64,000 nt of DNA from a virus. Taxonomy: Duplodnaviria > Caudoviricetes. The position numbers and the translations under genes are program-made. This document shows, piece after piece, positions 1 to 6,634 of this stretch. Location: the IMG/VR virus record IMGVR_UViG_3300029305_012082, positions 32,001-96,000 of that record. The stretch is one strand, 5' to 3'. Each line of letters begins with the position of its first letter. Positions within the stretch are counted from its first letter, which is position 1. The notes below the pieces were generated by a model. The model made no database searches, was not told the origin of the DNA, and was given only the letters and a program-made list of their open reading frames with translations.

Positions 1-2438
1 CCAAGATCAAGATCGAATTCAATCCGCTGTGGTCTTTGAGCGATGTAGAACAAGCTGATCTCGACAACAAACGGGCAAACACCGAGTTGGTGAAGGCACA
101 AACCGCACAAGCATACATCGACATGCAGGTCTACGATCCAAGCGAGATCAGAAAGAAGCTTGCCCAAGCAAATGACTTCGAAATCGATGATGTAATTAGC
201 GAAGAGGATCTGGAAGAAGATTTCTTTGCTTCTTTGGAAGAAACGGCTGAACCTACAACTAGGTTGGCTGCAAACCCCGACGCTGTCCACGAGACAAAGA
301 CAGCGGCTGAAGGTAGTACGCCTACGAATGCGCCGGCAGCAACGAAGCTTCCTCAGGATATGACGGCGCAGGAAATCGGAGAGGTAGCAAAGAACACCGA
401 TGAAGATGATGCAGTGTGGAATCCTTTTGGCGTTGGCGTTCTTGTAATAAAGGATGGAAAAATTCTTACTGGAACGAGGCACAATGACTCCGGATATGGA
501 CTCATCGGAGGCCCCGGTGGTCATGGAGAAGAAGGTGAAAGCCCTGAAGAGGCAGCTTTTCGTGAAACCGAGGAAGAATTCGGTATCAGCGCAAAAGAAC
601 TGATCCCCATTGGATTAGGCCCTTTTGAACCCGAAAGTGGGCTGCAATCTCATCTTTTCATCTGCACAGAATATGACGGTGAACCCGACTGTGTTGATAT
701 GGAGATGGTCAATCCCAAATTCCGCACCTTGGAAGAATTGGAACAGCTGGATGCGTCCCTGTTCCCACCGTTCAAGGACAGCTTAGAGATCCTGAAAAGG
801 GAACTCTGTGGAAAACGGGATGACGGTGGCCCCGGCTCCGGTAACTGGGGACATGCTGGTAGACCCGGTAAAAAGGGTGGCTCTTCAGGAGGTGGCGGTG
901 CACATAACCGCATGGGATCTTCTGAGGAAGGATATACTTCCTTCTCCAAGGAAAAAAAGAAGATGGCAAAGCCGCACAAGCTCTCTCACGAAGAACTTTC
1001 CAAGTGTCCCAATGGTACTGTCATCGCTGGCATGGCTGGTCACTACAAAAAAGCCAAGATTGAAGTTTGGAACAACGAGACGTTCGACTATGAATTTAAG
1101 GAAGGCTTCGTCAGCGATGACTGGGGAGATTTCCTTGAAATCGATCAGGTAATTTCTGCTGCCGGTAACGATTCCTATGGTCTCGCAATTCCCGACAGCG
1201 CCAACAAGAACTACCTCAAACCGAAGGGAGATCCTTTCTCTGACGAACGGAGAACCAACGCATTCAAGGCATCTGAAGCTCGTGATGCTGATGACCTGCT
1301 CAGAGAGAAAAGTGGACATATTTGGCGAGGACTGGATGATGCATCCAAAGATGCCCTCGTTGGATACACGGGCGAAACATACTTTGATATAAACAGCGGC
1401 TTACGAAATGGCTATAATGTATCAGACAGCATCCGGAAAGACACGGAACTCTTGACAAATGCAATTTCTCAATCTGTTCTGGATAGAGACATGTATCTGT
1501 TCCGTGGCACTAGCAGCAGCGCGGCAGAGAAACTTTTCGGCTTAAAATCTGGCGATCTCGCTACTTGGAGCGGTCAGATCGAAGATCTGAGCACATTGGT
1601 CGGAACACGAGGTATCGACAACGGCTTTTTGTCCTGCGGAACGTCTGAAGGCAAAGGATTCACCAGCCGAGATGTCCAGTTGAAGATATACTGTCCTGCC
1701 GGAACACAGGCACTTTACGCCGAACCCTTCTCTGCATTCGGACGTGGCGATCAGCGAAGCTGGGATGGTATCAGCAAGCAGAATTCCTTCTCTTCTGAAA
1801 ACGAAACAATCCTTCAAAGAGGATGTGAGCTGCGTATTGTTGGTGCGGAATGGTCTGGAAACAAGGCTATTCTGGAAGTTGAAGTGCTATCCCAGATGAA
1901 TAATACCATCAAATCAGATGGAGATGACCTAGATGGCTTCTCAAAATCATCGAATCCTGATAATCTCGAAAAACATCTTGACTTTTACGGTCAATCAGCT
2001 ACGATAAAGTCACAAGATAACTTCGATGGCGGCTCCGGCTCCGGAAACCATGGACACAGAGGTGTTAAGGGTCAACGGGGAGGATCTGCAGCAAAGTCCT
2101 CCCATCCCAAAGTCACAAAGTTCACAACCCAGAATGGGAGAATGAAGATTACTTCAGATCTTAAAGTCAAAGCGAGTAAATCTGGGAAAGTATCTGTTAC
2201 GATAAAAGCGGGACAGGAAATCGAAGGGATTTATTCTTTTGCTGGGAAGGGGTCGAATGCAAATCTTGTGGTATCCGGCACACTGTCCAAACAATATGGA
2301 GGCAAACCGAAAGACTGGTCCCACTTGTGTGGTTATGCAACCGTTGTCAATTCAAACGGAAGCCAAGAACGGGCGGAGATCCACTGGTTTGAGCATGAAA
2401 CGGTAGGCCAGATAAATTTCAAAGTTAAAAAAAGGTAG
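1..2438 (+). CDS. 5'-truncated portal-like protein (DUF1073-type C-terminus) fused to Nudix, VIP2/C3-like ADP-ribosyltransferase and a C-terminal putative toxin domain
   Basis: Frame is open from base 3 (KIKIEFNPLWSLSDVEQA...YDPSEIR, portal-like end), so the start lies outside the window. Nudix box GGHGEEGESPEEAAFRETEEEFG; ART motifs YTG..INSGLR, LFRG, FLSC, ENE; lies upstream of head genes. Confidence 0.8.
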   Translation, partial: KIKIEFNPLWSLSDVEQADLDNKRANTELVKAQTAQAYIDMQVYDPSEIRKKLAQANDFEIDDVISEEDLEEDFFASLEETAEPTTRLAANPDAVHETKTAAEGSTPTNAPAATKLPQDMTAQEIGEVAKNTDEDDAVWNPFGVGVLVIKDGKILTGTRHNDSGYGLIGGPGGHGEEGESPEEAAFRETEEEFGISAKELIPIGLGPFEPESGLQSHLFICTEYDGEPDCVDMEMVNPKFRTLEELEQLDASLFPPFKDSLEILKRELCGKRDDGGPGSGNWGHAGRPGKKGGSSGGGGAHNRMGSSEEGYTSFSKEKKKMAKPHKLSHEELSKCPNGTVIAGMAGHYKKAKIEVWNNETFDYEFKEGFVSDDWGDFLEIDQVISAAGNDSYGLAIPDSANKNYLKPKGDPFSDERRTNAFKASEARDADDLLREKSGHIWRGLDDASKDALVGYTGETYFDINSGLRNGYNVSDSIRKDTELLTNAISQSVLDRDMYLFRGTSSSAAEKLFGLKSGDLATWSGQIEDLSTLVGTRGIDNGFLSCGTSEGKGFTSRDVQLKIYCPAGTQALYAEPFSAFGRGDQRSWDGISKQNSFSSENETILQRGCELRIVGAEWSGNKAILEVEVLSQMNNTIKSDGDDLDGFSKSSNPDNLEKHLDFYGQSATIKSQDNFDGGSGSGNHGHRGVKGQRGGSAAKSSHPKVTKFTTQNGRMKITSDLKVKASKSGKVSVTIKAGQEIEGIYSFAGKGSNANLVVSGTLSKQYGGKPKDWSHLCGYATVVNSNGSQERAEIHWFEHETVGQINFKVKKR
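1978..2005 (+). promoter_or_regulatory. copy of the phage promoter motif inside the portal fusion ORF
   Basis: TTGACT-16nt-TACGAT followed by AAAGTCACA, as at 51209. Confidence 0.6.
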
Positions 2439-2447
2439 GGGATTTCG

Positions 2448-2606
2448 ATGACAGGAATTTGGAGAGGCGATACTGATCCTCTGGAGCTTATCCATGGGAA
2501 AGAGTACGAAATTATCGGAGAAGGTTTCGACGGTACATTTTTCGAAGTGGTTGACGAAACGGGGGAGGCATTCTTGTATCCTGCGGAAGATTTCGAAATC
2601 GTTTAA
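2448..2606 (+). CDS. 52-aa acidic protein, putative immunity/antitoxin partner
   Basis: Manual translation MTGIWRGDTDPLELIHGKEYEII...VVDETGEAFLYPAEDFEIV; starts 9 nt after the fusion ORF; absent from ORF track. Confidence 0.7.
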   Translation: MTGIWRGDTDPLELIHGKEYEIIGEGFDGTFFEVVDETGEAFLYPAEDFEIV

Positions 2607-2648
2607 TAGCGGTTCTTGAAATAATTTCTAGGCATATAGAAAAACCAC

Positions 2649-2676
2649 TTGACTAGGTCGGTAGGTAAGTTACGAT
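2649..2676 (+). promoter_or_regulatory. phage promoter motif
   Basis: TTGACT-AGGTCGGTAGGTAAGT-TACGAT. Confidence 0.75.
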
Positions 2677-2714
2677 AAAGTCAAGATGATACTACCGAGC
2701 AAGGAGGGGTTAAA

Positions 2715-2945
2715 ATGGCAAGATGGGACAATGAAGAGTTTGCGCTCCAGCGCCCTGATGAAAACCGGATTATCTGCAAGGATTGTGTGTTTAGAGAAAA
2801 AGATCGTCAGTTTGGCAAGAGTGTTATCTGCGGATGCACACTTGACATCTGTCAAGTTTATTCGAACAGCAATCCGAAGCCGCACGATATTCTTTTCAAG
2901 AACAAACCCTGTGGGTATTATGTGAGCGAGAATGATGAAGACTAA
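2715..2945 (+). CDS. small Cys-rich, possibly metal-binding protein
   Basis: AAGGAGG RBS; CKDC...C...C pattern. Confidence 0.7.
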   Translation: MARWDNEEFALQRPDENRIICKDCVFREKDRQFGKSVICGCTLDICQVYSNSNPKPHDILFKNKPCGYYVSENDED

Positions 2946-2975
2946 GATCAGAAGCAGAGTAAAGGAAAAGGAACT

Positions 2976-3767
2976 ATGATTGGTGCAATTGTAGGAGATA
3001 TTGTAGGCTCCATTTATGAATTCGATAATCACAGAGGCAAGGAGTTTCCTTTGTTCGGAAAAGGATGCTTCGCAACAGATGACAGCATTATGACTTTGGC
3101 GATTGCCAAGGCGGTTATGCTCAGTAAGCCGGATCACAGTGATCTTGGCAGAAATGCCGTCAAGCACATGCGAGAAGTTGGTCAGCCGTACCCATCTTGC
3201 GGGTATGGAGGCCGGTTTTTTCAGTGGATGTACAGCGACAATCCAGCCCCGTACAACAGCTTCGGAAACGGGGCCGCCATGAGAGTTAGTCCTGTTGCAT
3301 ACGAAGCGAAGTCGTTGGAAGATGTGAAGCTGATGTCTCGGCTTGTGACTGAGGTAACTCACAATCATCCCGAAGGGATTAAAGGCGCAGAGGCTGTAGC
3401 GGTGGCCACATGGCTTGCGCTTCATGATTTCGATAAAAGCGAAATCGATCATTATATCCGGGAGAACTACTATCCGATGGATTTCACGATTGATGAGATC
3501 CGTCCGACATATCGGTTCAATGAAACCTGTCAGGATACTGTCCCCCAAGCGATCAAGGCATTTTTGGAGTCCGAAAACTTCGAGGATGCGATCCGGATTG
3601 CGATTTCTGTTGGCGGTGACAGCGACACTTTAGCGTCTATTACTGGAGCAATAGCCGGTGCGTACTACGGTGTGCCCTCGGCAATCAAAATTCAAGCAAA
3701 TCGGTATCTCGATGATCGGCTTTCTGTGATTTTAAGGGATTTTTGTTTGCGTTACGGCGCAGCATGA
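2976..3767 (+). CDS. ADP-ribosylglycohydrolase (ARH/DraG/Tri1 family)
   Basis: GAIVGDIVGS, TDD, GNGAAMRVSP, THNHPEG and GGDSDT motifs. Confidence 0.95.
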   Translation: MIGAIVGDIVGSIYEFDNHRGKEFPLFGKGCFATDDSIMTLAIAKAVMLSKPDHSDLGRNAVKHMREVGQPYPSCGYGGRFFQWMYSDNPAPYNSFGNGAAMRVSPVAYEAKSLEDVKLMSRLVTEVTHNHPEGIKGAEAVAVATWLALHDFDKSEIDHYIRENYYPMDFTIDEIRPTYRFNETCQDTVPQAIKAFLESENFEDAIRIAISVGGDSDTLASITGAIAGAYYGVPSAIKIQANRYLDDRLSVILRDFCLRYGAA

Positions 3768-3772
3768 TAATG

Positions 3773-3803
3773 AAGCGGGTTGGCATTTGCCGACCCGCTT
3801 TTA
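3773..3803 (+). terminator. intrinsic terminator
   Basis: AAGCGGGTTGGC/GCCGACCCGCTT stem followed by T run. Confidence 0.65.
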
Positions 3804-3825
3804 TAAGGACAATTTCAATGAATAA

Positions 3826-3900
3826 GTCGTGGTAGATCAGAAGGTAGATCACCGGGAAGGCATAGCCCGACAGTCGCAGGTTCAAGTCCTGCCCACGGCA
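3826..3900 (+). tRNA. degenerate tRNA-like element (Met-like; CAT in a 9-nt loop; no CCA)
   Basis: Acceptor GTCGTGG/CCACGGC, D stem GATC/GATC, T arm GCAGG-TTCAAGT-CCTGC; anticodon loop AAGGCATAG is non-canonical. Confidence 0.55.
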
Positions 3901-4003
3901 CAACTCCCGGAAGCGGGGCTATTTTCTACTCCTTTGTAACTTGACGGCTCGGAAAAGACGAGAAGTGCTGTGTAGCGTGGTTGAGCTACACAGTGCGCCT
4001 TAT

Positions 4004-4088
4004 GGGGCAGTGGCGAAATGAAAACGCTGGGGACGATTTCCTCTAGTGCTGTTGCACCTTGTTGGTTCAAATCCAACCTGCCCCACCA
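4004..4088 (+). tRNA. degenerate class II tRNA-like element, anticodon undetermined
   Basis: Acceptor GGGGCAG/CTGCCCC plus ACCA, T arm GTTGG-TTCAAAT-CCAAC, variable stem GTGC/GCAC; irregular anticodon arm. Confidence 0.6.
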
Positions 4089-4188
4089 CCCACGAAAGTG
4101 GGATCTTCCTCTCTTTTTCTTGTTTTGACAGCTCGGAATAGACGGCAATGCCCTGTAGAATTCATTCGCCTCTGCAGGGCAAACATAC

Positions 4189-4264
4189 GCTGCTATAGCT
4201 CAGTCGGTAGAGCAGCTGATTTGTAATCAGCAGGTCGTCGGTTCGAGTCCGACTAGCAGCTCCA
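4189..4264 (+). tRNA. tRNA-Thr(TGT)
   Basis: Full cloverleaf; GCTGA-TTTGTAA-TCAGC; CCA. Confidence 0.95.
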
Positions 4265-4367
4265 CTGTGGTGTGGTGAACCACAGAGGCTTTCATTTCTC
4301 ATTCTTCTGGCAGCTCGGAAAGACGAGCAGTGCTGGACGATCCTCCTATTCGCCCAGCACATCATAT

Positions 4368-4441
4368 GCCGCAGTAGTTCAATGGCAGAACACCAGCCTT
4401 CCAAGCTGGTTGCGCGGGTTCGATTCCCGTTTGCGGCTCCA
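4368..4441 (+). tRNA. tRNA-Gly(TCC)
   Basis: CCAGC-CTTCCAA-GCTGG; CCA. Confidence 0.95.
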
Positions 4442-4666
4442 AATCCGAGGTGTACATGGGCCGTTGCCGACATAAGGCAGCGCAAGCCGGTTGCCGCGCT
4501 ACACGATAGGAGAAAACAGCTGGGTCGCTCCCATCCGACAGCCGGACGGAATACAGACCGATAGTACTGTGACACGACGGACAGCGACGCCGAACAGGCC
4601 AGAACGAGAGGCCGGCAGACACGCCGCCAGCTGACTTAGAGAGCAGAAAAGATGCGTGTCCGATAT

Positions 4667-4741
4667 AGGGGTGTCGCCAAGAGGAAAGGCACGGGACTTT
4701 GACTCCCGTATTCGCAGGTTCGATCCCTGCCATCCCTGCCA
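4667..4741 (+). tRNA. tRNA-Gln(TTG)
   Basis: CGGGA-CTTTGAC-TCCCG; CCA. Confidence 0.93.
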
Positions 4742-4854
4742 AGGACATATATGTCCTTACCAAGAGCCGAAAACAACCTGCTTGCGCGACAACGACTGCG
4801 TACCACGCGGGAACAGTGTAAGCGGGTTCTTTCGGTAATTGCCAACATTGAAAT

Positions 4855-4942
4855 GGGAGCTTCGCCAAGCGGTGAAGGCATCGGTCTTGAAAACCGACAG
4901 GGCAGTAATGTCGCATGGGTTCGAATCCCTTAGCTCCCGCCA
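4855..4942 (+). tRNA. tRNA-Ser(TGA)
   Basis: TCGGT-CTTGAAA-ACCGA; long variable arm; G discriminator plus CCA. Confidence 0.92.
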
Positions 4943-4967
4943 AAACCAACAGTGATGAAGATTTGAC

Positions 4968-5050
4968 CTCCGCATGAAGGAATGGTAGACTAACTTGTCT
5001 CAAAAACAAGTGCCATCGGCGTCCCGGTTCGAGTCCGGGTGCGGAGACCA
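4968..5050 (+). tRNA. tRNA-Leu(CAA)
   Basis: CTTGT-CTCAAAA-ACAAG; variable arm; CCA; weak D stem. Confidence 0.85.
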
Positions 5051-5209
5051 GCCGGTATGCTTCATCTAGACATAGTGTTGGGCGACTGTGACCCGGACTC
5101 TCGGAGTCCTCCTTCCAAAGAAAATCGCAGTCTGATCTTAAAGTGAGGCCGCTTACCCTTGTGGTGGAAAAGTAGCGGGAAAGAACAGAGGCGGGGCTGT
5201 TCATTTCGT

Positions 5210-5286
5210 GGGCCTTTAGCTCAGCGGGTCAGAGCCTCCGGCTCATAACCGGATCGTCCACGGTTCGAATCCGTGAAGGCCCACCA
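5210..5286 (+). tRNA. tRNA with CAT anticodon, probably Ile2 (lysidine type)
   Basis: TCCGG-CTCATAA-CCGGA; GGGCCTT/AAGGCCC acceptor resembles Ile2 rather than fMet. Confidence 0.85.
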
Positions 5287-5481
5287 TAAATGCAAGCGAT
5301 GGATAGATCCGCCAAACACTAGGATCACCAGAGGTCGAGACTCTGGGCTTGCTCATGGCCGCGAGGCTTCTTCCTTTTGTTGTGCATAACGGAGGAAGAT
5401 AAAGAATACCATCTGGACCCGGATTGAGTGAAACGGATGCGACTTTTGCACGAGCGCAGGGCTGAAAAGTTCCGTGGCAAA

Positions 5482-5599
5482 AACAGGAATGCAAATAGTG
5501 GTAAGGATGAGGTGAGGTGCCCGTATAGGAGAGGCAACGCCGACCAACCATTAGGTGTCGAGGCGTTGGGTAGTTCTGAAGGCTATTTGCATTCTTGTT
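5482..5599 (+). ncRNA. putative structured ncRNA
   Basis: 18-bp closing stem AACAGGAATGCAAATAGT/GCTATTTGCATTCTTGTT; inner stem CAACGCC/GGCGTTG. Confidence 0.45.
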
Positions 5600-5695
5600 A
5601 TTGCTGTGAAAAATCCATTCGCATAGTGGCAAATAATGCCGCTATGCTTTTTTGTTGTCCTACAAACGCCCCAAGCAGCAGGGAGGAGATAATCC

Positions 5696-6634
5696 TTGAA
5701 CCATAACCAACACCAACAAGCTGTAAAAAAGGCGGTAAAAGCGAAATTCAGGGGTCACACGACCCTGCACAGCAAGCGAACCCCACTATATCCAGACACG
5801 GCAGAGCGGGAATATATGAGGATCACAGCTGGTTACGTCAGGTTGATGAATCAGGTGTTGAGAGAGAACCTGCCTGAAATAATGACCGAGTACAGAGCGC
5901 AACGAACAGATGGTGTCAGAAACGACGATCTTCGTGACTTGGAATCTTGGCTGAGACAAAAGTTCCGACAAATGGCGCAAGAACTTGAAAAACGGGTTTC
6001 TGTATTCGGGCTAGAGAGACTTGTGGACAAAGTATCCAGAATGACACAACGGATGTCCCTGAGGGAATGGAAAAAGTCGGTTAAAGACACCTTGGGAATT
6101 GATCTCATGGATGACTACTATAGCGGAGAATTCTACGAGTCGATAGTTCACAGGTGGGTGGATGAAAACGTTCTAAAAATCAAAACGCTCCCTCAGAACA
6201 CACTGGATGAGATGCAGCAAATTATACTGCATGGCTTTAAGTCTGGCTCGACGATCAGAGACATCACGAAAGAGATCCAACGTGAATATGGAGTAACCAG
6301 AAGACGGGCAAGAACTCTTGCCAGAGATCAAATTGCAACACTGAATTCGCAGATAACAAAAGCCCAGCAACAAGATGCCGGATGCAACAGATACAGATGG
6401 TCCGATTCCCGTGATTCTCGTGTCCGAGAATGCCACCACGCTTTGAACGGCAAGATCTTCAGCTGGGACGATCCTCCGGAGATGTGGTACACGACCAAGA
6501 AACGAGGAGTTGTTCGCACCGGAAGACGTTGTCATCCCGGCGAAGATTACTGCTGCAGATGCATTGCTATTCCAGTATTCGATTATGAGACACTTGATGT
6601 CCCTATAAAAGAAACAGTAAGTCCCAAGGGGTAA
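5696..6634 (+). CDS. head morphogenesis protein (MuF/SPP1 gp7 family)
   Basis: RARTLARDQ, W...DSRVRECH and HPGEDYCCRC motifs. Confidence 0.92.
   Translation: MNHNQHQQAVKKAVKAKFRGHTTLHSKRTPLYPDTAEREYMRITAGYVRLMNQVLRENLPEIMTEYRAQRTDGVRNDDLRDLESWLRQKFRQMAQELEKRVSVFGLERLVDKVSRMTQRMSLREWKKSVKDTLGIDLMDDYYSGEFYESIVHRWVDENVLKIKTLPQNTLDEMQQIILHGFKSGSTIRDITKEIQREYGVTRRRARTLARDQIATLNSQITKAQQQDAGCNRYRWSDSRDSRVRECHHALNGKIFSWDDPPEMWYTTKKRGVVRTGRRCHPGEDYCCRCIAIPVFDYETLDVPIKETVSPKG

Follow-up and report, generated by a model that had tools for sequence, protein, structure and literature searches.

The tRNA array and its three spacers

The DNA stretch analyzed here, hereafter the window, is 64,000 nucleotides (nt) long and corresponds to bases 32001-96000 of a 104.7-kb IMG/VR provirus record (IMGVR_UViG_3300029305_012082) that is rated complete; identical DNA is present in several animal faeces metagenomes. 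The window carries an array of transfer RNA (tRNA) genes, the first four of which were called identically by ARAGORN and Rfam and are separated by three spacers. Each spacer contains one copy of a 22-nt hairpin motif, which is the subject of this work. The features of this part of the array are as follows.

3826-3901, + strand: tRNA-like gene, Cys (GCA) by ARAGORN, Rfam tRNA 47 bits; upstream of spacer 1
3905-3918, + strand: hairpin A1 (UCCCG-GAAG-CGGGG), then a U-rich run; by folding, terminator-like in the scan
3919-3941, + strand: CU-rich tract 1, which includes ACUCCUUU; from the sequence
3942-3963, + strand: core copy 1, UGACG followed by GCUCG, the loop GAAAAGA and CGAG(A); covariance model R1, 31.2 bits, E 1e-5
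3965-3996, + strand: hairpin B1 with a 12-bp stem, by folding; 7-nt tail at 3997-4003
4004-4088, + strand: tRNA-like gene, 'Pro GGG' by ARAGORN, Rfam tRNA 40 bits; between spacers 1 and 2
4089-4102, + strand: hairpin A2 (CCCAC-GAAA-GUGGG); by folding
4103-4125, + strand: CU-rich tract 2 (UUCCUCUCUUUUUC); from the sequence and folding
4126-4147, + strand: core copy 2, UGACA followed by GCUCG, the loop GAAUAGA and CGGC, bulged-U subtype 'GACGGCA'; model R1, 25.2 bits, E 4e-4
4149-4181, + strand: hairpin B2 with an 11-bp stem, by folding; 7-nt tail at 4182-4188
4189-4264, + strand: tRNA-Thr (UGU); ARAGORN and Rfam, 77 bits
4265-4285, + strand: hairpin A3 (CUGUGGU ... ACCACAG); by folding
4286-4307, + strand: CU-rich tract 3; from the sequence and folding
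4308-4329, + strand: core copy 3, UGGCA followed by GCUCG, GAAAGA, CGAGC and A, the consensus form; model R1, 36.5 bits, E 5e-7
4330-4360, + strand: hairpin B3, whose loop has UCCUCCU (4341-4347), by folding; 7-nt tail at 4361-4367
4368-4441, + strand: tRNA-Gly (UCC); ARAGORN and Rfam, 70 bits

As judged from the tRNA ends given by ARAGORN and Rfam, the spacers run from 3902 to 4003, from 4089 to 4188 and from 4265 to 4367, i.e., they measure 102, 100 and 103 nt. An earlier reading of the window, made from its letters alone (the sequence-only reading), had put them at 103, 100 and 103 nt, which holds for the second and third spacers but not for the first. The common layout that it described, in which a CU-rich tract and a conserved core lie between hairpin A and a variable hairpin B, with 7 nt more before the next tRNA, was recovered in all three spacers, with the cores at 3942-3963, 4126-4147 and 4308-4329. 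Folding confirmed both hairpins, the tails of about 7 nt, and the flanking stems that differ in sequence between the three copies and still pair. An alignment of the spacers has 33 invariant columns with GCTCGGAA.AGACG at their centre, and the folding z-scores are -1.8, -3.3 and -2.9. The view of the spacers as structured, conserved elements of the RNA type stands. The motif lies on the sense strand upstream of the tRNA, from which it is separated by the second hairpin and the 7 nt.

Both tRNA genes beside spacer 1 (3826-3901 and 4004-4088) have low scores and odd anticodon arms, and may be non-decoding tRNA-like RNAs. According to ARAGORN the 'Pro GGG' gene is 85 nt long, with the anticodon at the odd position 26 and an encoded CCA.

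When model R1 was run over the whole 104.7-kb genome, exactly three matches were obtained, all of them spacer cores (E 5e-7 to 4e-4). This covariance model was built from 69 distinct core variants, three being the window copies, so that the window matches are partly by construction; what is informative is the lack of any further match at E <= 1 elsewhere in the sequence. Within this genome, the motif is confined to the tRNA array.

The core is a 22-nt hairpin with a covarying stem

The motif consists of UGRCR, NNNNG, GA(N)AGA, CNNNN and A, and forms a 5-bp stem closed by a G-C pair. Its conservation runs past the search pattern to ...GACGAGCA, and no informative position was found beyond about 22 nt. 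In the window copies the 5′ flank reads UGACG, UGACA and UGGCA, in agreement with U-G-R-C-N, the loops are GAAAAGA, GAAUAGA and GAAAGA (copies 1-3), and the scores with R1 are 25-36 bits.

The stem varies and its pairing is kept, as in GCUCG/CGAGC, GCCGG/CCGGC, GCCCG/CGGGC, GCGUG/CACGC, GUCUG/CAGAC, AAUCG/CGGUU and CUUAG/CUAAG. Among the 69 variants, double changes were found in four of the five stem pairs (67 cells, compared with 12 +/- 5.5 in shuffles and 5-19 with a slid partner), whereas the closing G-C pair was invariant in all 69. The sequence-only reading had proposed covariation as a check on its claim, and the stem pairs do change on both sides above the shuffled level. In addition, UG.C and GGA..AGAC are invariant across the 69 variants, which points to specific recognition, although TGRC was itself one of the selection criteria, which bears on the invariance of T4, G5 and C7. 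At 116 loci recovered with a pattern that fixes the 5′ strand only, the base opposite the stem U was A in 87 cases, G in 29 and C or U in none. This U-A/U·G pairing on the strand bearing the tRNAs points to a motif that acts at the RNA level, on that strand.

A search of positions 3500-6000 of the window against Rfam 15 (E <= 10) returned only tRNAs and noise, and nothing credible over the core or hairpin B, so that the other check named with the earlier claim, a match to a known family of different function, came out negative for these two elements. A sub-threshold match to SpF41 (22.9 bits, against a gathering score of 52) spans tRNA-Cys into hairpin A1. No Rfam family overlapped the motif at 31 motif loci (gathering scores) or at three cultured-phage loci (E <= 1), and full-text literature searches with the motif letters and with descriptions of the motif turned up nothing beyond primers and papers on other subjects. 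The hairpin, with no entry in Rfam or in the literature searched, is an uncatalogued and very widespread phage RNA motif.

Distribution of the motif among phages and bacteria

The degenerate core pattern was found in at least 120 IMG/VR contigs, compared with 19 for the reversed control pattern. The exact 22-mer occurs at 73 places in the one-per-species genomes of GTDB, where about 0.3 would be expected by chance as estimated from the size of the collection. These genomes belong to more than 10 phyla, which include Bacteroidota, Bacillota, Pseudomonadota, Actinomycetota, Acidobacteriota, Myxococcota, Saccharibacteria and Dependentiae; two contigs binned as Pacearchaeota carry it as well. Among cultured phages 86 records have the motif, 61 of them from Vibrio phages, and the others include phages of Bacillus, Gordonia, Erwinia, Sinorhizobium, Stenotrophomonas, Iodobacter and Microcystis and a crAss-like phage; in the rows listed, there is mostly no annotated feature under the match. 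Such near-identity across phyla implies that the motif relies on a partner or mechanism shared by almost all bacteria. In E. coli genomes the consensus motif is absent, and the variant of phage phiEt88 was found in one of 5,426 genomes.

Two other sources of comparison were uninformative. Relatives of the Mu-F-like protein encoded beside the array (55 loci, <=61% identity) mostly lack a tRNA array, and model R1 gave no convincing match in the 13 that were scanned, so that they say nothing about the spacers. Read mapping with four faecal DNA runs recovered only the same phage and a relative similar to that at L025 (L-numbers denote the fetched loci examined for the motif), and no informative variation.

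Position of the motif and its neighbours

Distinct instances with enough flanking DNA numbered 171. In 28 of them the first base of a tRNA or transfer-messenger RNA (tmRNA) predicted by ARAGORN lies 2-10 nt after the motif, mostly 2-6 nt, and in 10 further instances there is a tRNA within 200 nt. An open ATG frame starts within 90 nt behind the motif in 47/171 instances; in the clear cases the distance from the end of the motif to the ATG is 13-35 nt, which just fits a ribosome-binding site. Rfam detected tRNAs of about 120 nt that start 5-6 nt after the motif at L077, L085 and L357; other instances are followed by tRNA-like RNAs.

The flanking families of open reading frames (ORFs) are mostly co-oriented with the motif, and the neighbouring genes are typical early or accessory phage genes, e.g., those for a CI-type repressor, RecT, ERF, exonucleases and DNA-modification enzymes. 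When about 1,900 ORFs were clustered, no protein family was found to be linked to the motif within 3 kb, the largest being present at 12 of about 190 loci. This speaks for a partner supplied by the host, or for no partner at all.

Several unusual RNAs were seen at motif loci. The long tRNAs measure 110-126 nt, have an insert of about 45 nt and are missed by ARAGORN (L357 676-1772, and also L077, L085, L086, L314 and L317); several stand directly behind the motif, and L357 has five consecutively. At L300 and L309 (an Azobacteroides metagenome-assembled genome, MAG) the motif is followed by a tRNA-like RNA of about 58 nt with acceptor, D and T arms only, and at L032 (4323-4392) by one without a normal anticodon arm, whose anticodon region reads CCAGGAGGUAUG. 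In a Nannocystaceae MAG (L328, reverse strand, about 1200-2387) the exact motif lies 13 nt upstream of the ATG that begins an EF-Tu-like ORF of 383 aa (MKKEHLNVGTIGHVDHGKT...), in a high-GC, host-like setting with no tRNA nearby. Other motif contigs carry a hatchet ribozyme and a tmRNA (L037, 13016-13099 and 13597-14158) or a C4 antisense RNA (L009, 231-315), all at Rfam gathering scores. Finally, in Bacillus phage 031MP002 (MN176224.1 4861-5995, equal to L297 1218-2352) a 1.1-kb stretch that is poor in ORFs and carries no annotation, situated behind the capsid maturation protease gene, contains the motif (1499-1526), promoter-like sequences seen by eye and several hairpins, and no match to an Rfam family; this phage is a cultured, tractable carrier of the motif.

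Proposed role as a leader hairpin in cis, or as a released RNA

Any mechanism has to accommodate an RNA hairpin that is read sequence-specifically and without a dedicated neighbouring protein, a partner or intrinsic activity that is valid from Bacteroidota to Actinomycetota, and a preferred site immediately 5′ of a functional RNA unit. Given these constraints we favour, tentatively, the view that the core is a leader or 'punctuation' hairpin that works in cis, binds a conserved host factor and influences the 5′ processing or the stability of the unit that follows, or the read-through into it. It is a quite possible explanation, and we would not call it probable. We infer that the array is transcribed, that the hairpin has a binding partner and that its effect is exerted in cis. 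Each spacer would then be one modular non-coding leader unit inside the tRNA transcript, in which the previous tRNA's trailer hairpin, a linker rich in C and U, the 22-nt hairpin, the variable second hairpin and 7 nt lead up to the next tRNA. The conserved hairpin would be the functional part, recognized by its sequence and bound, in the nascent or precursor RNA, by a putative factor conserved across bacteria. Acting in cis, it would set off the RNA unit right behind it, which may be a tRNA, a tRNA-like RNA or the ribosome-binding region of an mRNA, and would alter how the 5′ end of that unit is processed, how stable the unit is, or whether transcription reads through into it.

Several observations weigh against a cis-acting leader. 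The percentage of paired stems is inflated, because the 69 variants had been selected for at least 4 bp. Terminator-like hairpins occur within 50 nt downstream in 17/178 instances, compared with 6/477 control places, and abutting tandem arrays of 2-4 units were found, as at L333 (four before tRNA-Leu), L317/L330, L313/L319 and L358; such terminator-followed and tandem units are explained no less well by an RNA that is released and binds a protein in trans than by a signal in cis. Within the same arrays many of the phage tRNAs stand without the motif, so that it is not needed for tRNA maturation as such. Furthermore, the terminator at 3775-3805 and the terminator-like hairpin A1 precede the first copy, which is a poor fit to simple antitermination.

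The main rival is accordingly a released decoy or sponge RNA, in which the hairpin is the payload, the tRNAs, tRNA-like genes or a terminator set the ends, and a conserved protein is titrated or recruited in trans through GA(N)AGA. Besides the tandem arrays, the units composed of motif and terminator look like stand-alone small RNAs (L030, L010, L336 and L121), and cleavage by RNase P would, with 2-6 nt between motif and tRNA, give the released RNA a short 3′ tail. In the window, two of the tRNA genes next to spacers 1 and 2 appear to be non-decoding, and hairpin B takes the place that a terminator hairpin has elsewhere. However, single copies are the rule, and about a quarter of the instances are followed by an ATG frame at the distances given above, for which a role in cis is more natural. 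We consider a released decoy rather unlikely.

Exchange of modules at the motif

All instances were compared with the motif as anchor, and locus pairs were classed by an identity of >=85% over one 40-nt flank and <=45% over the other. The same upstream and a different downstream flank were found in 35 pairs, some of which are small indels, and the reverse in 24, while 28 pairs were colinear on both sides. BLAST confirmed joints at which blocks of identity begin or end at the edges of the motif. L013 and L307 share 126 nt of 100% identity (the motif and tRNA-Asp) from the first base of the motif onwards, and their upstream DNA is unrelated; L047 differs from L024 by a 126-nt insertion exactly behind the motif; and L365 has a left side of the L029 type joined to a right side of the L045 type. 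Because the same 22 bases stand at many module boundaries, the motif is a place where tRNA or gene cassettes are swapped, i.e., it marks sites of module exchange whatever its molecular role.

This double character may be combined in a more speculative proposal, to which we assign a small chance: the motif could be a universal phage 'plug', an RNA signal for a near-universal bacterial factor (e.g., RNase P, or a core RNA-processing or ribosome-related enzyme) and at the same time a DNA joint for cassette exchange across phyla, and the spacers would be hairpin RNAs that are set off by tRNAs and have their own function, e.g., as a decoy that mimics ribosomal RNA (rRNA). The loop GGAAAGAC is identical to a stretch of E. 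coli 23S rRNA, an 8-nt match that about one motif in 15 would find by chance somewhere in rRNA and that presumably lies around A2058; this likeness is a lead only. The spacers of the window type also carry a copy-like 3′ tail of 16S rRNA, CCUCCUUU.

Alternatively, the hairpin could work at the DNA level only, as a single-stranded or duplex recombination site that exchanges tRNA or gene cassettes, comparable to integron attC sites or to repetitive extragenic palindromic (REP) elements (GTAG plus hairpin). The breakpoints at the motif edges, the tight abutment on the payload, the combination of a short conserved word with a covarying stem, the uniform orientation and the tandem 'empty' copies all fit such a joint. 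Set against this, no recombinase or HUH-type enzyme is linked within 3 kb, the 5-bp stem is very small for such sites, and a wobble of the U·G type, seen at one stem position in a quarter of the cases, is more in keeping with RNA. Any conserved 22-mer is, besides, a passive hotspot for homologous exchange, and the breakpoints therefore need no dedicated system. We regard a dedicated DNA joint as distinctly unlikely.

Possible antitermination, and proposed antisense action of the CU-rich tracts

Processive antitermination of the nut or put kind, in which the hairpin, alone or with host Nus factors, lets the polymerase read through downstream terminators or structured RNAs, is a sub-variant of the reading in cis. 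The 5-bp stem with a purine loop of the GAA(R)A type resembles boxB; the motif heads early operons, near CI-type repressors and upstream of RecT, ERF and exonuclease genes, and in phiEt88 it follows a Q-like gene; terminators are over-represented shortly behind the motif; and the window-type unit has two adjacent hairpins, like put. However, the tight spacing of 2-6 nt to tRNA 5′ ends is not expected of an antiterminator, hardly any copies exist in E. coli or its lambdoid prophages, and the first terminators of the window precede the first copy. No boxA word (CGCUCUUA-like) was found upstream of the hairpin, there being no positional conservation outside the 22 nt in 116 instances. As for a protein of the N type, no recurrent neighbour of >=70 aa was found, a search that small, fast-evolving N-like ORFs would escape, and the loop has six or seven bases, against the GNRA-like pentaloop of boxB. 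Antitermination appears very unlikely.

The sequence-only reading had interpreted the spacers as an array of small RNAs (sRNAs) of about 100 nt, freed by tRNA processing, whose pyrimidine tracts are antisense seeds directed at the ribosome-binding sites of host or defence mRNAs. RNase P together with 3′ trimming could release such pieces, which is conceivable because the spacer ends coincide with tRNA ends. The tracts themselves are real. Their resemblance to an anti-ribosome-binding site is weak in the window (ACUCCUUU, UUCCUCUCU) and absent from tract 3, whereas it looks stronger in relatives. About 15 other loci, which include L025, L056/L279, L119, L207, L212, L232, L254 and L266, have the two-hairpin form, in which the core is followed by AAG, by a hairpin B that varies with numerous compensatory changes, by a tail (e.g., GCGAAAUAU) and by a tRNA; they were recovered from a scan with a loose pattern that gave mostly chance matches, only about 15 being true. 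Nearly all of them keep a CCUCC word 5-25 nt upstream of the core even though the rest of the tract differs (aCCUCCUUUCUU at L207, uCCUCCUUUUUC at L025), in some cases with a hairpin before the word. Pentamers of the CCUCC type were present in 33/222 upstream windows of 40 nt and in 5/222 downstream ones. The tracts are predicted to be mostly unpaired in window copies 2 and 3, and the loop of hairpin B3 exposes its UCCUCCU, all of which would suit antisense pairing.

Other findings speak against antisense silencing. What the relatives conserve is one generic CCUCC word, which we take to correspond to the 3′ tail of 16S rRNA as in Bacillota, and not a repertoire of variable seeds; most motif instances elsewhere have no such tract. 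The ribosome-binding sites of the phage's own genes are of the canonical GGAGG type in 24 of the 37 checked, so that a general RNA against such sites would hit phage mRNAs too. Likewise, the idea of a constant scaffold for a silencing sRNA is not supported, the core being a generic, phage-wide hairpin that also stands before ORFs, before terminators and in tandem in unrelated phages. We therefore consider the antisense model highly improbable, and what was taken for an sRNA array is more aptly regarded as a leader module of wide occurrence, present here in three copies. What survives of the earlier interpretation is the structured, conserved nature of the elements and its fallback, 'processing or antitermination elements', which comes close to the reading favoured here.

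The remaining candidates were rejected: a sigma-70 promoter (TTGAC of copies 1 and 2 is not conserved, there is no -10, and the tRNA would start inside the would-be -10), a sigma-54 promoter (wrong spacing), hammerhead, twister, pistol, hatchet and hepatitis delta virus (HDV) ribozyme cores (no fit by eye and no Rfam match), a relic of a tRNA T-arm or anticodon arm (wrong loop, too conserved), a mimic of clustered regularly interspaced short palindromic repeats (no likeness to the common repeats), a pseudoknot between the loop and the CU-rich tract (wrong polarity, no covariation), and long-range pairing of UGRCR with the tail after hairpin B (fits only L025b).

Surroundings of the array

The genes and signals around the spacers are listed below.

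36-2438, + strand: NUDIX/ADP-ribosyltransferase fusion gene, the first in the gene order of the window
2976-3767, + strand: ADP-ribosylglycohydrolase gene, downstream of the fusion gene
3775-3805: strong hairpin with a U run (terminator), found by eye; upstream of the first motif copy
3826-5286, + strand: eight tRNA genes (ARAGORN)
5621-5647: terminator-like hairpin with a U run behind it, from the terminator scan
5696-6634, + strand: Mu-F-like head gene, 3′ of the tRNA array

As the terminators at 3775-3805 and 5621-5647 bracket the tRNAs, the array looks like a self-contained cassette. Directly 5′ of it (36-3767) lie an 800-aa protein with NUDIX and exoenzyme-type ADP-ribosyltransferase parts and the ADP-ribosylglycohydrolase, i.e., a writer/eraser pair for ADP-ribosylation within the structural region of the phage.

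Two further non-coding stretches of the array were observed. The spacer between tRNA-Gln and tRNA-Ser (4742-4854) forms a long, very stable helix (-44.1 kcal/mol, z = -5.6, none of 200 shuffles as good); it contains no copy of the motif and has no match among the loci fetched. Between tRNA-Met and the terminator at 5621-5647 there is an ORF-poor region of about 330 nt (5287-5660), whose core at 5431-5477 (AACGGAUGCGAC..UGCAC..GCGCAGGGCUGAAAAGUUCCGUGG) is 83-91% identical to inter-tRNA stretches of L025, L202, L232, L263, L283, L113, L097, L073 and L369. The uncultured gut-phage records MT835513 and MT835520 match this region at 83-85%, and no Rfam match was obtained. It is a candidate for a second conserved non-coding RNA of such tRNA cassettes.

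Comparison with known systems

The boxB of phage lambda is a small hairpin of the nut site that acts in cis on the transcribing polymerase, and its sequence differs between lambda, P22 and phi21. Like boxB, the motif has a 5-bp stem and a purine loop starting with GAA, and is found in early-operon leaders and ahead of terminators. Its loop, in contrast, is a GA(N)AGA of six or seven bases closed by G-C, and no boxA was found with it, nor any recurrent neighbour of >=70 aa that could be an N protein. The sequence of the motif does not change from phylum to phylum, copies of it stand next to tRNAs and in tandem rows, and E. coli has hardly any.

The put RNAs of phage HK022 consist of two adjacent hairpins, act in cis without a phage protein, are promoter-proximal and occur in few phages. 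The window-type unit also has two adjacent hairpins, but its second hairpin is freely variable, and the two are likened by description, not by sequence. The T4 stable RNAs species 1 and 2 (rnaC and rnaD) and the sRNAs from bacterial tRNA spacers, of which 3′ETS-leuZ is an example, are lineage-specific RNAs freed by tRNA processing. The spacer RNAs likewise lie between or beside tRNA genes, whereas the motif is a portable module that is also found away from tRNAs; here too the likeness is one of description only.

The promoter-early stem-loops (PeSLs) of T4-like phages combine a sigma-70-type promoter with a terminator stem-loop, are lineage-specific and lie at the module boundaries of shuffled genes (PMC2839356, PMC4122927). 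The motif resembles them as a short, conserved, non-coding stem-loop at module boundaries that marks gene shuffling, and differs in having no -10 at the right distance and in being the same across phyla. A promoter scan of the + strand of the spacers found no -35/-10 pair at 16-18 nt, and the base before UG is not conserved.

Theta ribozymes, which are minimal HDV-like ribozymes with a double pseudoknot, lie beside gut-phage tRNAs with their cleavage site abutting the tRNA 3′ end, and have been proposed to serve in tRNA maturation (PMC10879173). The motif is similarly a small conserved RNA directly beside phage tRNA genes that is common in gut phages; unlike theta ribozymes, it is a simple hairpin and lies 5′ of the tRNA. 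In the window the bases after each tRNA form a closed local hairpin that leaves no room for the P2 and P3 of a theta/HDV fold, and no ribozyme of Rfam matched at E <= 10. In viromes the motif can serve as an easy sequence marker of module boundaries, of tRNA-like RNAs that lack annotation and of non-coding cassettes, and it is relevant to the expression of phage tRNA arrays and accessory genes and to their movement between genomes. If the reading as a leader hairpin, or its rival as a decoy, is true, a new cis element or decoy would join nut, put and the theta ribozymes among the RNA signals of phages.

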